From an uncultured Gammaproteobacteria bacterium (GTDB lineage: Bacteria > Pseudomonadota > Gammaproteobacteria > JACCXJ01), in assembly GCA_963764725.1 (NCBI GenBank), contig CAVXTM010000016.1, positions 277,598 through 341,597 of the forward strand: DNA of 64,000 nt. Reading direction: 5' to 3'. Positions 1 to 23,275 of this stretch are shown here, piece by piece. Position numbers and translations under genes: made by a program. The notes beneath the pieces are model-generated. The model was given only the letters and a program-made list of their open reading frames with translations. It was not told the DNA's origin and searched no databases. Within the stretch, counting starts at the first letter, position 1; the number at the start of each line of letters is the position of its first letter.

Positions 1-739
1 GCGGCGCCGACCGCGACAAGCTCGACCCGATCCTCGACGCCTGCGTCGCCGTCTACAAGGAGCAGCTCGACGAGGACGGCCAGGTCGACTTCAAGGGCAA
101 GGCCAAGGCGTTCATCGCGCACCTACGGCTTCCTCGCCTCGATCCTGCCCTACACCAACGCCGAGTGGGAGAAGCTCTCGATCTTCCTGAACTTCCTCGA
201 TCCCGAAGCTGCCGGCGCCCGATCGAGGAGGACCTGTCGAAGGGCATCCTCGAAGCGATCGACATGGACAGCTACCGGGTCGAGAAGCAGGCGGCGGTGA
301 AGATCCAGCTCCCGGACGCGGACGCCGAGATCGAGCCGGTGCCGACGACCGGCGGCGGCCACAAGCCCGAGCCCGAGCTCGACCGGCTCTCGAACATCCT
401 CAAGACCTTCAACGACCAGTTCGGCAACATCCCGTGGACCGACGCCGACCGCGTGCACAAGCTGATCACCGAGGACATCCCGGACCGCGTCGCCGCCGAC
501 ACGGCCTACCAGAACGCCAAGCAGAACTCCGACAAGCAGAACGCCCGCATCGAGCACGACAAGGCGCTGGCGCGCGTGATGACGGCCGTGCTGAAGGACG
601 ACACGGAGCTGTTCAAGCAGTTCAGGACAACGAGTCGTTCCGGCGCTGGCTGACGGACACGGTGTTCGGGCTGACCTACGAATCATCGGGGGAAGATCCG
701 CGAGCGAGCATGCGACGCAGCGATCGGTATCTCCGGTAG
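1..739 (+). pseudogene. hsdR: Type I restriction enzyme R subunit (HsdR) C-terminal fragment, frameshifted; the 5' part lies outside the window
   Basis: Translation across three frames gives the HsdR C-terminal signature ...FKGKAKAFIAH|YGFLASILPYTNAEWEKLSIFLNFL|IPKLPAP|IEEDLSKGILEAIDMDSYRVEKQAA...ELDRLSNILKTFNDQFGNIPWTDADRVHKLI...KDDTELFKQF|VQDNESFRRWLTDTVFGLTY. At least four frame changes fall between about 118 and 625 (two single-G insertions near 200 and 221). Confidence 0.6.
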
Positions 740-946
740 ATTCACGCACAATTTCCTGAGCAGCTCTCAAGAACGACTCGAGCTTGTTGACGTGGCGAGT
801 TTACTCGCTAGAATGATGCCTTTGTGCACTGCGGCAATTATTGACTCGAATGCGCCCTACCCTACGCCCGACGCGACCGTTCTTCTCGTCGGGGCCTTGC
901 GCCAAACATCGCCACCGGTGAGCTTGGTCGTTTAGGCGCCTCAGCG

Positions 947-15059: not shown

Positions 15060-15653
15060 ATGAGCCCACGCGCAGCACAGGTACAACGCGATACGCAGGA
15101 AACCCAGATCGGCGTGACCTTGGATCTCGATGGCGCCGGTCGGTCGGATCTCGATACCGGGATCCCCTTTCTCGACCATATGCTCGATCAGGTGGCGCGG
15201 CACGGGTTGATCGACCTCAAGATCGAAGCGCGCGGCGATCTCCACATCGACGCGCACCACAGCGTCGAAGACATCGGCATCGCGATCGGTCAGGCGCTCG
15301 CGCAAGCGCTCGGCGACAAGCGCGGGATTAGGCGCTACGGCCATGCATACGTCCCGCTCGATGAGGCGCTGTCGCGGGTGGTCATCGACTGTTCGGGACG
15401 GCCCGGTCTCGAGTTTCACGTGGATTTTCCGCGTGCGCGCGTCGGGGATTTCGATGTCGATCTTTTCTACGAATTCTTCCACGGGTTCGCCAACCACGCG
15501 CGCGTAACGCTTCACATCGACACGTTTCGCGGCCGCAACGCCCATCATATTATCGAGACCGTCTTCAAAGCCTTCGGTCGCGCCTTGCGCATGGCCGTCG
15601 AGTCCGACCCGCGGCTTGAGGGCGCCGTGCCCTCGACCAAGGGCAGCCTCTGA
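15060..15653 (+). CDS. hisB: Imidazoleglycerol-phosphate dehydratase
   Basis: [18 protein letters not shown]...[21 protein letters not shown]...[10 protein letters not shown]...[14 protein letters not shown]. Confidence 0.9.
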
Positions 15654-15680
15654 GAGCTTGTGAATAAATCTACTGCGCAG
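15651..15680 (+). repeat. Boundary repeat copy TGAGAGCTTGTGAATAAATCTACTGCGCAG (contains the hisB stop)
   Basis: One of five copies of a roughly 28-nt motif (see findings). Confidence 0.6.
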
Positions 15681-15707
15681 CCCACGCCGCGCGCCGTTCA
15701 TCGCACG

Positions 15708-19734: not shown

Positions 19735-20460
19735 TTACAGGAACTTAAACTCGAAACTCACCGGGTTTTTCCGCGGGCCTTGCACTTCCAGGACGATATG
19801 AACCGGGATCCCAGGCGGCATCGCCAGCGCCGGGTCAACATGTTTTTCGAGGTACTCCTTGGGCACAAACCGGCGAGCGGCGAGGACTTGGCCGTCCGTA
19901 TCGTACAAACCGAGCTGCAGCACCGGGTAGGGCTGGGGGAATTCCGCATAATTGGTGAAGAGGGCGTTGATCAACAGTGCGTCTGCGGCACGCGGATGGA
20001 CGCGCACATCGCGCGAGACCAGCCGGATGAGGCTCGGATCGCGGTAGTGGGGCAACTGGCAATGCCCGCAAGCCCACTCCAGCGGCGGGCGCGCTACGGG
20101 GAACAGCGCGAGCAGGCGGGACCCTTGAAACCATGCGATCTGACCCAGCAACAGCATCAAGAGTATGACGGCCGCCGCGCCCCACGCGCTCGGGCGGTGT
20201 TTCGGGACCAGCCCCTCGATGGCGGTCAGATCGAGCGCCTGGGCTAGGGCGCTGTCGGCAGCCTGAGCCACATCGGTGCGGCCCGTCGTGGCGTCCCCGG
20301 CCGCAGCGCGCGTTGGGGGTTCGCTTTGCGCGTCAACCAAAGCCTCCAAGGCATCGAAGACGCTGTGGCAAATCCCGCAGCGCACCTTGCCGTGTGCCGC
20401 CTTGAGCTCGCTCGCGGAAAGGCGAAATAGCGTACGGCATTCCGGACAGCGCGCCAGCAT
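19735..20460 (-). CDS. Zinc-ribbon plus DUF3426-type membrane protein
   Basis: N-terminal MLARCPECRTLFRLS...VRCGICHSVF (MJ0042-type zinc finger), a TM segment, then a C-terminal beta-rich domain; typical of the neighbourhood of accC/fis. Confidence 0.65.
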   Translation of the reverse strand: MLARCPECRTLFRLSASELKAAHGKVRCGICHSVFDALEALVDAQSEPPTRAAAGDATTGRTDVAQAADSALAQALDLTAIEGLVPKHRPSAWGAAAVILLMLLLGQIAWFQGSRLLALFPVARPPLEWACGHCQLPHYRDPSLIRLVSRDVRVHPRAADALLINALFTNYAEFPQPYPVLQLGLYDTDGQVLAARRFVPKEYLEKHVDPALAMPPGIPVHIVLEVQGPRKNPVSFEFKFL

Positions 20461-20535
20461 CGTTTCAGCGCCCTGGCGCGCCCGCCCCGGTCAGCCGCCT
20501 GGCAGGCACGAGGACCCACTCCTCGATCCGTTCTA

Positions 20536-20563
20536 CCGCAGTAGATTTACTCACAAGCTCTCA
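20536..20563 (-). repeat. Boundary repeat copy (minus-sense TGAGAGCTTGTGAGTAAATCTACTGCGG, contains the accC stop)
   Basis: 27/30 identical to the hisB copy. Confidence 0.6.
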
Positions 20564-21904
20564 GGTCAGTCCCAGCTTCTTTTCGAGATAATGGATATCC
20601 ATAGCGCCCGCGCGAAATCCTTCGTCATTCATCATATTGCGATGCAAGGGCAGGTTGGTCTTGATCCCGTCGATCACAATCTCAGTGAGGGCGTTAATCA
20701 TGCGCGCGAGCGCGATGCTTCGGCTCTCGCCGTGAGCGATGAGCTTGCCGATCAAGGAATCGTAGTAAGGCGGAACCGCATAGCCTTGGTAAATATGCGT
20801 ATCCAAGCGGATCCCGGGACCGCCGGGCGGATGAAATAAAGTGATCGTGCCGGGCGAGGGCATGAAGGTTTCGTGATCTTCGGCGTTGATCCGGCACTCG
20901 ATTGCATGACCACGGAGGATGATCTGGTCCTGGCGATAACTCAGAGGTTCGCCGCTCGCGATGAGGATCTGTTCTTTGACGAGATCCACCCCAGTGACCA
21001 TTTCGGTGACTGGATGCTCCACCTGAATGCGCGTGTTCATTTCGATGAAGTAAAACTGAGCATCTTGATAGAGAAACTCAAACGTGCCGGCGCCGCGGTA
21101 GCCGATTTCCTGGCAGGCTTGCACACATCGCATGCCGATAGCGTCTCTAATTTCCGCGCCGAGACCCGAGGCGGGCGCTTCTTCGATGACCTTTTGGTGG
21201 CGCCGCTGCGTCGAGCAATCGCGTTCCCCGAGGTGTATGGCGTTGCCGAGGGTGTCGGCGAGGACCTGGATCTCGATGTGGCGCGGTGTCTCAAGGTATT
21301 TTTCAAGATAGACGGAACCGTTTCCGAAAGCCGCGCGGGCCTCCCCGCTGGTAAGGGCGATGGCATTGAGCAGCGCGGCTTCGCCATGCACCACTCGCAT
21401 GCCGCGCCCTCCCCCGCCTCCCGCGGCCTTGATCATGATCGGATAACCGATCGCGCGTGCGATCCGGAGGTTCTCGTCGACATCGACGCCGAGGGGTCCG
21501 TCGGAACCAGGCACGCAGGAGACTCCTGCTTGTTTCATCACGCGGATGGCGGATACCTTGTCGCCCATCAGCCGGATCGTTTCCGGCCTCGGGCCGATGA
21601 AGATGAAACCGCTTTGCTCGACGCGCTCGGCGAAGTCGGCGTTTTCCGCGAGGAACCCATAACCCGGGTGGATGGCCACGGCGTCGGTGACCTCGGCGGC
21701 GCTGATCAAGGCTGGGCCGTTCAAATAACTTTCCGCCGAGGGCGCCGGACCGATGCACACCGACTCGTCGGCGAGACGCACCGGTTTTAGATCGCGATCC
21801 GCGGTCGAATGAACCGCAACGGTCTTGATCCCCAACTCGCGGCAGGCGCGTAAAACTCTGAGCGCGATCTCACCCCGGTTGGCTATCACGATTTTGTCAA
21901 GCAT
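20561..21904 (-). CDS. accC: Acetyl-CoA carboxylase biotin carboxylase subunit
   Basis: [33 protein letters not shown]... ATP-grasp. Confidence 0.95.
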
Positions 21905-21906
21905 GG

Positions 21907-21936
21907 CTCAGAGATTGTGAATTAATCTACTGCGCA
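21907..21936 (+). repeat. Boundary repeat copy TCAGAGATTGTGAATTAATCTACTGCGCAT abutting the accC start codon
   Basis: Same motif family. Confidence 0.55.
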
Positions 21937-22032
21937 TCCCGATCGCTGCGGCGCGTGCTCGCTCGCTCCTCGCCTATCTACCGGATATGTCTCGTCGCTT
22001 GCTCCGCGGCTCCTTGCGCTCGGGCTTGCTCG

Positions 22033-22060
22033 ATAAGATTTATTCACAACCTCTTAGTTA
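22033..22060 (-). repeat. Boundary repeat copy (minus-sense AACTAAGAGGTTGTGAATAAATCTTATC) in the accB-accC spacer
   Basis: Core GAGGTTGTGAATAAATCT; inverted relative to the 21907 copy. Confidence 0.5.
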
Positions 22061-22104
22061 ACAAATGCCGGACGAAACCGGGAGGCCTCCCTGCGCGCAG
22101 GGAT

Positions 22105-22560
22105 TCAAGTTCGTTTCAGTACGAACAGGGGCTGGTCGTATTCCACCGGTTGGCCGTTGTCGACCAGAATCGCGGCGATCGTGCCGTCGCTATCGGCTTC
22201 GATCTGATTCATTACCTTCATGGCCTCGATGATACACATAATCTCGCCCCGTTTTACCCGCTGACCCACCTCAACGAACGGTTTGCTGGTCGGAGAGGCG
22301 CCGAGATAAAAGGTGCCGACCATCGGAGCGGTGATGGAATGACCTTCAAAGTCTGGTTTCGGTTTAACATCGGTGGGAGCGACGGCATGCCCGGACGGGG
22401 CGGGGAGCTGCGGATCCGCTAGCTGTAAGAAGGTTTGACCCGCCGGCGGCGCCCGATAGCGGCTGATCCGGACCGATTCCTCTCCCTCGTGGATTTCGAG
22501 CTCGGCAATGCCGGACTCTTCCAGGAGCTCGATTAGCTTTTTTACTTTACGGATGTCCAT
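22105..22560 (-). CDS. accB: Acetyl-CoA carboxylase biotin carboxyl carrier protein
   Basis: [23 protein letters not shown]... and the C-terminal biotinyl motif [10 protein letters not shown]. Confidence 0.9.
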
Positions 22561-23029
22561 CTTTTTCCTGGTCGGGCGAACGTGTGGCATGGGCTCGCAA
22601 ACGAGCGATCGCTGCTTGCAAGGCAAGCTCATATCCCTGTGGCCCGAGACCGCTAACTATCCCGACCGCGACTCCGGAAAGGTAGGACGTGTGGCGAAAA
22701 GGCTCGCGCGCGAAGATATTGGATAGATGAACTTCGATAAACGGTATCTTGACTGCTACGAACGCATCGCGTAGCGCGATGCTCGTGTGCGTGAAAGCGC
22801 CTGGGTTGATAATGATGAAGGCGACGTTTTCCGACTGCGCCCGATGAATACGCTCCACCAGCTCGTGTTCGGCATTGCTCTGAAACGAGGACAGCATGTG
22901 TCCCGCCGACAGCGCCAGAGCTTCGAGGCAGGACTCGATCTCGGCGAGCGTCGTGGTACCGTAAATCTCCGGCTCACGTGTTCCTAATAGATTAAGGTTG
23001 GGTCCGTTAATGAGCGCCAGTTGCGACAT
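22547..23029 (-). CDS. aroQ: Type II 3-dehydroquinate dehydratase
   Basis: [24 protein letters not shown]...[19 protein letters not shown]... Confidence 0.9.
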
Positions 23030-23175
23030 ACCCGGTTCTTGAATCGCGGTTAGTTGCCGCTTGTTTCCGACACATTAGCATAAGTTAACGGCGGAAACGA
23101 GCAAACTACCCGCTATTTAGCGGCGTGGCGGAAAGCGCACGGAACCGGCGGCGAGGAATTCAATTTGATTTCGCC

Positions 23176-23275
23176 ACCACGGGGTATGAACCCCGTGGGG
23201 CGACCAAAGGGGAGAGCTGCGCCTCTCCCCTTTGGAAACCCCATGGCTAAGGATCCCGCGGCAGGACCGCGGGGA
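23176..23275. repeat. Three consecutive GC-rich stem-loops in the tlpA-aroQ intergenic region
   Basis: CCACGGGGtatgaaCCCCGTGG (23176-23198), CCAAAGGGGAGAGctgcgcCTCTCCCCTTTGG (23204-23235) and TCCCGCGGcaggacCGCGGGGA (23254-23275). Confidence 0.5.

Follow-up and report, generated by a model that had tools for sequence, protein, structure and literature searches.

The transcripts of Correia elements (CREE/NEMIS) form long hairpins that can alter the expression of neighbouring genes (PMC2649163, PMC2229807). The element described here, which lies directly upstream of accC in an uncultured gammaproteobacterium, belongs to a family that resembles them: Correia elements are likewise non-coding, about 100–155 bp long, bounded by terminal inverted repeats of about 25 nt, present in many copies and often located between co-transcribed genes. 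The two differ in that Correia elements duplicate TA, whereas the family of the accC element duplicates TNA within CT(G/C)AG, is spread over many genera in two classes of Proteobacteria, and has a preference for stop codons and for one orientation. Its termini, GAGCTTGTGAATAAATC, also differ from the Correia repeat. ERIC elements (IRU) are imperfect palindromes of about 127 bp in transcribed operon spacers, with presence/absence polymorphism between close relatives (in part from PMC10969869). They resemble the accC element as small palindromic MITEs in transcribed spacers, with RNA hairpins able to influence genes nearby, and differ from its family in both sequence and target. ERIC elements are not known outside Enterobacteria and Vibrionaceae. 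The accC element belongs to neither the Correia nor the ERIC group.

QMITE2 of Coxiella burnetii is a bacterial MITE reported for the most part from 3' untranslated regions (PMC10969869). Its organism is unrelated, and the accC family differs in abutting the stop codon itself, where the duplicated TGA regenerates the stop. Insertion sites of three nucleotides are a feature of the IS1031 group (PMC2516522). A 3-bp target duplication is common to IS5/IS1031-type insertion sequences, PIF/Harbinger–Tourist MITEs and the accC family; the difference is that no transposase-bearing partner with matching termini was found for the last of these. IS1031-type elements, as catalogued in ISfinder, have a TNA consensus and termini beginning with GAG. 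For the genes themselves the closest comparison is E. coli, in which, according to work by James and Cronan, AccB autoregulation reportedly acts on transcription from the accBC promoter and not through a spacer RNA. The genes and the problem of balancing AccB against AccC are the same as here, and the E. coli accB–accC spacer is very short.

The window, by which we mean the whole stretch of 64,000 nt that was analysed, carries aroQ, accB and accC on its minus strand at this locus, with a spacer of 200 nt between accB and accC. The genes flanking the spacer are as follows, where accC was identified from its homologues and Pfam domains and the start of accB was set by analogy with the calls of 151–152 aa in relatives.

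20561–21904, minus strand: accC (biotin carboxylase, 447 aa), start codon ATG at 21904–21902
22105–22557, minus strand: accB (biotin carboxyl carrier protein), stop codon TGA at 22107–22105

The original prediction was that two copies of a "boundary motif" within this spacer, complementary at 13 of 14 positions and about 100 nt apart, pair on the mRNA and occlude the region 5' of the accC AUG, and that this structure might serve to balance AccB and AccC. The positions and the complementarity were confirmed: TTGTGAATAAATCT at 22036–22049 (minus strand) and TTGTGAATTAATCT at 21915–21928 (plus strand) are reverse complements at 13 of 14 positions. The inverted repeat grows to arms of 22 nt, 21907–21928 and 22036–22057, which are complementary at 19 of 22 positions with 107 nt between them. 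When the 200-nt spacer was shuffled 300 times, the best 22-nt inverted repeat never exceeded 17 of 22, and 19 was found in none. The 14-mer (with up to two mismatches) occurs four times in the window against an expectation of 0.11, a number reached in 0 of 100 shuffles.

We consider it very probable that the inverted pair represents the terminal inverted repeats of a non-coding, palindromic MITE of 143 bp, inserted upstream of accC. The parts of this element are listed below.

21911–22053, plus strand: MITE body, 143 bp, palindromic, matched by the family HMM (nhmmer) over profile positions 1–143 with E = 5e-27
21911–21928, plus strand: left (accC-proximal) terminal inverted repeat, GAGATTGTGAATTAATCT, the 3' stem arm on the mRNA
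22036–22053, minus strand: right (accB-proximal) terminal inverted repeat, GAGGTTGTGAATAAATCT in the minus-strand reading, the 5' stem arm on the mRNA
21908–21910, minus strand: copy of the target-site duplication, TGA, with the gccATG of accC directly after it (empty site aacTGAgccATG)
22054–22056, minus strand: second copy of the target-site duplication, TAA, one substitution from TGA

The forward orientation of the element is the plus strand of the window, antisense to accBC transcription, with its "ACTGCG" (left) end toward accC. Its sole ORF is one of 41 aa starting with GTG. It has features expected of a bacterial MITE: it is short and non-coding, with terminal inverted repeats, a target duplication, dispersed copies and a precise empty site, and the duplication is the 3-bp TNA of the IS1031 type.

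The other copies of the motif within the window are older or damaged members of the same family.

20537–20560, minus strand: 24 nt remaining from the left end of an older copy of the family, directly next to the accC stop codon (TGA, 20563–20561)
15654–15704, plus strand: left-end remnant of 51 nt, abutting the hisB stop codon TGA at 15651–15653 in the hisB–hisH spacer
700–762, minus strand: degenerate truncated copy, 48 of 62 positions identical to the left half of the accB–accC element

All copies of the motif in the window have the longer sequence CTGAGAGCTTGTGAATAAATCTACTGCG in common. The family HMM finds one full copy (21911–22053) and two left-end remnants; the copy at 700–762 is absent from its matches at E ≤ 10. 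The total in the 64 kb is thus four, one full copy plus three remnants. The remnant at the accC stop is found at the same position in all the USCg-clade relatives examined, decayed to varying degree. The "boundary motif" seen elsewhere in the window is the terminus of this family, and its position at gene ends would arise because the family targets CT(G/C)AG, a site which TGA stop codons supply and at which the genes are left undisrupted.

We note that the copy at 700–762 belongs to the same subfamily as the accB–accC element. An ORF running in across the left edge of the window ends at position 653, and the copy lies some 50–110 nt downstream of it. The copy is preceded by an apparent second, nested left-end start (TGAGAGCTG).

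Orthologous accB–accC junctions were gathered by way of AccC homologues, the members of their clusters and the contigs encoding them. The close lineages have 91–98% accC nucleotide identity to the window, and the junctions are arranged as follows.

L119/L120/L121, L122, L131 and L139: empty site, ...gttaacTGAgccATG; spacers of 48–54 nt; accC nucleotide identity 91–96%
The window: ...gttaac-TAA-(143 bp)-TGA-gccATG
L135/L136: orthologous full element with a perfect TGA/TGA duplication, both arms kept
USCg_Taylor (six assemblies): element lacking 33 nt, including the accB-proximal arm
Frasassi (two assemblies, also L091): element without its entire accB-proximal (5') half
L138 (nearest by accC, 97.8%): element of another subfamily, carrying an insertion in its interior, at the same TGA
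L137: oppositely oriented copy at the same TGA
L132–L134 (about 85% AccC identity): unrelated spacers of 48–95 nt without the motif

The empty site reads aacTGAgccATG in four lineages (L119–L121, L122, L131 and L139), and filled and empty sites differ by the element plus exactly 3 bp. The MITE entered the CTGAG located 3 nt upstream of the accC start, duplicating its central 3 bp (TNA), in an ancestor of only some of the USC-gamma-like Gammaproteobacteria lineages. Across sister lineages, at least three different family insertions sit on the same TGA, 3 nt before the accC ATG. One is of the window type, one is longer and belongs to another subfamily, and one is an opposite-orientation copy with nested repeats (compared over L137:879–1200, L138:892–1200 and L135:1003–1200 against window positions 21905–22104). 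Read from these alignments, the pattern is that of a mobile element at a permissive hotspot, unlike that of a conserved leader. Some points count against the MITE account, among them the failure to find an autonomous partner and the covariation of the arms, both described below. In addition, the duplication in the window is imperfect (TAA against TGA), and full copies persist before accC in at least three lineages (the window, L135/L136 and L138), at a site that has been hit repeatedly; because of this persistence and repetition, an acquired local function is conceivable.

The element has presumably been moved in trans, most likely by a DDE transposase of the IS5/IS1031 type, as the 3-bp TNA duplication suggests. 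An autonomous partner with matching termini was found neither in the approximately 1 Mb of collected loci nor among PLSDB plasmids. Within the collected loci, the only terminal-repeat pairs 300–3000 bp apart were those of two adjacent MITEs (L026). A search for TNA-GAG...CTC-TNA structures of 600–2000 bp gave one candidate, of 905 bp in L033; on inspection it consisted of two MITEs that flank a gene and sit at consecutive gene stops. On PLSDB plasmids, blastn gave one MITE-like match, on a Comamonas plasmid, and no transposase.

We then consider the family as a whole. Its exact 20-mer terminus TTGTGARTWAATCTACTGCG was found at a minimum of 118 loci in Beta- and Gammaproteobacteria, next to unrelated genes and usually against a TGA stop codon; the scan took one genome per species, and its counts of loci are lower bounds. 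The matches listed include Rhodocyclales (Sulfuritalea, Accumulibacter, Dechloromonas, Azospira, Thauera and Denitromonas), Burkholderiales (Curvibacter and Hylemonella), Nitrosomonas, Nevskiales, Methylococcaceae, and "Chromatiales/Gammaproteobacteria" genomes of USC-gamma type. A match in an Acidobacteria genome (L107) was rejected as a chance or unrelated match. Among the matches listed, 82 of the 103 paired copies are 140–160 bp long. The family termini read GAGCTTGTGAATAAATCTACTGCGC ... GCTCGCTACGATTTCTTCACAAGCTC, and both are more than 90% conserved across about 25 nt in 74 family members.

The flanks carry the signature of target duplication. They are identical over 3 bp at 63 of 94 distinct sites (TGA/TGA at 49 and TCA/TCA at 12), and over all 102 elements there are 64 identical pairs, compared with a mean of 41 and a maximum of 53 on shuffling. 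The target logo is C-T-(G/C)-A-G. We prefer a 3-bp TNA duplication to a 5-bp CTNAG duplication, since the TNA flanks match and only some 62% of copies have a G after the right flank.

Rfam 15 gave no match at the gathering score over the whole window and 15 family-bearing loci; at E ≤ 10 over 21700–22300 there was a single match, a chance snoRNA match lying in accB. A search of the literature by exact sequence string and keywords found no description of the family, and a 2024 review of prokaryotic MITEs is silent on stop-codon targeting. The family is apparently undescribed; it is widespread and stop-codon-preferring. The object at accC is itself of an ordinary kind, a MITE insertion. For annotation, a single MITE family explains the "boundary motif" at gene ends, as its terminus, both in this window and across many Beta- and Gammaproteobacteria.

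The stop-codon preference and the orientation bias are the most interesting features of the family. The "ACTGCG" left end abuts the in-frame TGA or TAA stop of an ORF of at least 80 codons at 55 of the 94 distinct sites, compared with 25.7% of control CTGAG sites that end such ORFs. The reverse case, in which a convergent ORF has its stop at the other end, occurs at only nine sites (55:9, binomial p = 3.5e-9). The upstream flanks show codon periodicity, and the duplicated TGA restores the stop codon. In one locus, each of two consecutive genes has a copy at its stop (L033:6934–7074 and L033:7698–7838). We considered whether the orientation bias could come from an intrinsic asymmetry of the target; however, the 32 copies away from ORF stops have TGA-type and TCA-type left flanks in a roughly even ratio of about 16:10 (small numbers). 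As these off-stop copies show no clear flank bias, the orientation bias probably comes from gene context rather than from target asymmetry. It is the position and orientation at stop codons, together with the structural features of the family, that led the earlier reader to see a "boundary motif".

The two arms covary across the family. RNAalifold identified compensatory changes at 13 of 28 consensus pairs, including terminal-repeat positions 3 and 4 and the central stem. In the 74-member alignment the covarying columns are 3/144, 4/143, 55–57/88–90 and 65–69/76–80, with the variants GAGC/GCTC, GAAC/GTTC and GAGG/CCTC at the arm tips and ATGTAC/GTACAT, ACATAT/ATATGT and ACGCAC/GTGCGC in the centre. 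Because the arms covary, the family hairpin is under some constraint, at the level of either DNA or RNA. G–U cells number 61 on the forward strand and 22 on the reverse; this asymmetry is only a weak hint, as it was the forward strand that served to derive the consensus structure. Taken together, the stop-codon and orientation preference and the compensatory changes may reflect either a choice of target or RNA-level selection.

This allows a bolder reading, which we regard as speculative and rather unlikely: that the family is a stop-codon-seeking MITE whose forward hairpin is selected as RNA, acting as a 3'-UTR stabiliser, terminator or processing element, and that the CTGAG before accC is a repeatedly selected landing pad. 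If this were true, independent insertions at accC would serve to tune the translation of AccC or to separate the mRNAs of accB and accC, and the original prediction would be right in effect but wrong on origin.

For the accC copy in particular, the relevant question is what the element does to the mRNA. Because the element is a palindrome, read-through accB–accC mRNA would fold into a long hairpin, with its 3' arm ending just before the AUG and the accC initiation region sequestered. The 151 nt bounded by the arms are predicted to form one long imperfect hairpin on the mRNA strand, at −56.1 kcal/mol (z = −3.96; equal stability in 0 of 200 shuffles). The opposite strand is nearly as stable (−51.9 kcal/mol, z = −3.43), and the whole spacer in its context of 221 nt folds less exceptionally (z = −1.8). 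The palindromy covers the entire segment between the arms, ends included. The 3' arm of the stem stops 6 nt short of the accC AUG, and in the minimum-free-energy fold UUUGUUAA pairs with accC codons 2–4, so that the AUG is enclosed too. A scan of 20300–23200 found no promoter-like sites and four terminator-like sites, 0 of them within the element.

The predicted cost of opening accC from −15 to +5 is 23.7 kcal/mol in the window, compared with 5.1–13.5 kcal/mol in nine relatives. By class, it is 5.1–13.2 kcal/mol for empty sites (13.2 in L139), 8.1–9.7 for relatives with a deleted arm, and 12.6–13.5 for the other full copies (L135 and L138). The window is thus extreme, yet the filled, empty and arm-deleted classes overlap in these thermodynamic predictions. 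In this genome the hairpin is predicted to bury the translation-initiation region of accC. On these in silico results the structural half of the original prediction stands, with the arms pairing and positions −15 to +5 predicted to be buried. Its functional half does not: the stem is not conserved, a result that the earlier reader had named in advance as refuting it. The predicted burial of the accC start is a by-product of transposon insertion and not a conserved regulatory device.

It could still be that the element transposed in and was afterwards exapted, with the hairpin lowering or timing AccC synthesis relative to AccB, or providing a site of mRNA processing or stability. The repeated occupation of the accC site would then reflect selection. 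We judge such an exaptation unlikely. In its favour are the opening energy of the window, the highest predicted; the three or more separate family insertions at the identical TGA in sister lineages; the retention of full copies in L135/L136 and L138; and the precedent of the Neisseria Correia elements for MITE hairpins that act on mRNA (PMC2649163). However, four lineages lack the element and two have lost the 5' arm, and the values for the filled sites of L135 and L138 overlap that of the empty site in L139. Moreover, the site offers a perfect CTGAG target where insertions are tolerated, so a simple hotspot suffices to explain its recurrent occupation. Repeated use of the accC TGA is a sign either of a hotspot for insertion or of selection that has recurred. 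That the 5' arm was lost twice independently would fit a stem that is dispensable or mildly harmful, and is also what ordinary MITE decay produces. Overall, we see a slim possibility of co-option of the hairpin at accC or of an RNA-level role for the family.

A dedicated, conserved accC leader that balances AccB and AccC and is tied to AccB autoregulation is very improbable. The stem does exist and is predicted to occlude the region 5' of the AUG, but the orthologous spacers do not conserve it: it is absent from four close and three more distant lineages, and the 5' arm is deleted in separate assemblies of USCg_Taylor (six) and Frasassi (two). Nor is it specific to accBC, as its arms are the termini of a repeat family whose copies flank unrelated genes at 94 distinct sites in many taxa. 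Nothing here ties the hairpin to AccB.

As an alternative to a DDE-type MITE, a REP/REPIN-type repeat mobilised by a RAYT transposase (IS200/IS605-like, acting on single strands) is suggested by the full palindrome outside genes, the CTAC/GTAG tetranucleotides near its ends and the 55:9 strand or orientation bias relative to the upstream gene, but is highly doubtful: single-strand Y1 transposition makes no target duplication, whereas here the 3-bp direct repeats covary across the two sides (TGA/TGA, TCA/TCA, TTA/TTA) as in a true target duplication, and filled sites equal empty sites plus the element and exactly 3 bp. Since the flanks covary in this way (TCA/TCA, TTA/TTA), IS200/IS605-style insertion without duplication was rejected.

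The MITE reading that we prefer removes a tempting but unsupported regulatory story, the stem being transposon anatomy. The series of sites (empty, full, arm-deleted and of another subfamily) forms a natural set that bears on the effect of a MITE hairpin 6 nt from the start of an essential gene.

Several smaller observations concern the interior of the elements. One USCg_Taylor assembly, MUGK01, has a 7-nt deletion inside GAGCGAGC direct repeats relative to the five other assemblies of the lineage (L128:1345–1500 against L123:1338–1500), which is consistent with slippage in the repetitive interior of the element. In the Frasassi genome, two family copies are broken after about 40 nt by unrelated sequence (L070:2407–2520 and L080:1310–1420), possibly another insertion element. 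Nested short repeats are present in several family copies, for example the ccctctccc...gggagaggg motifs in L137.

Outside the element, a small GC-rich hairpin, UCCCUG-CGCG-CAGGGA, starts 1 nt past the accB stop (22088–22103, minus strand). A GGAGG comes after it, some 35 nt before accC. The stem of this hairpin can still form at the empty sites of L119, L122 and L131, with G–U and compensatory changes, and it may be the genuinely conserved structure of the spacer.
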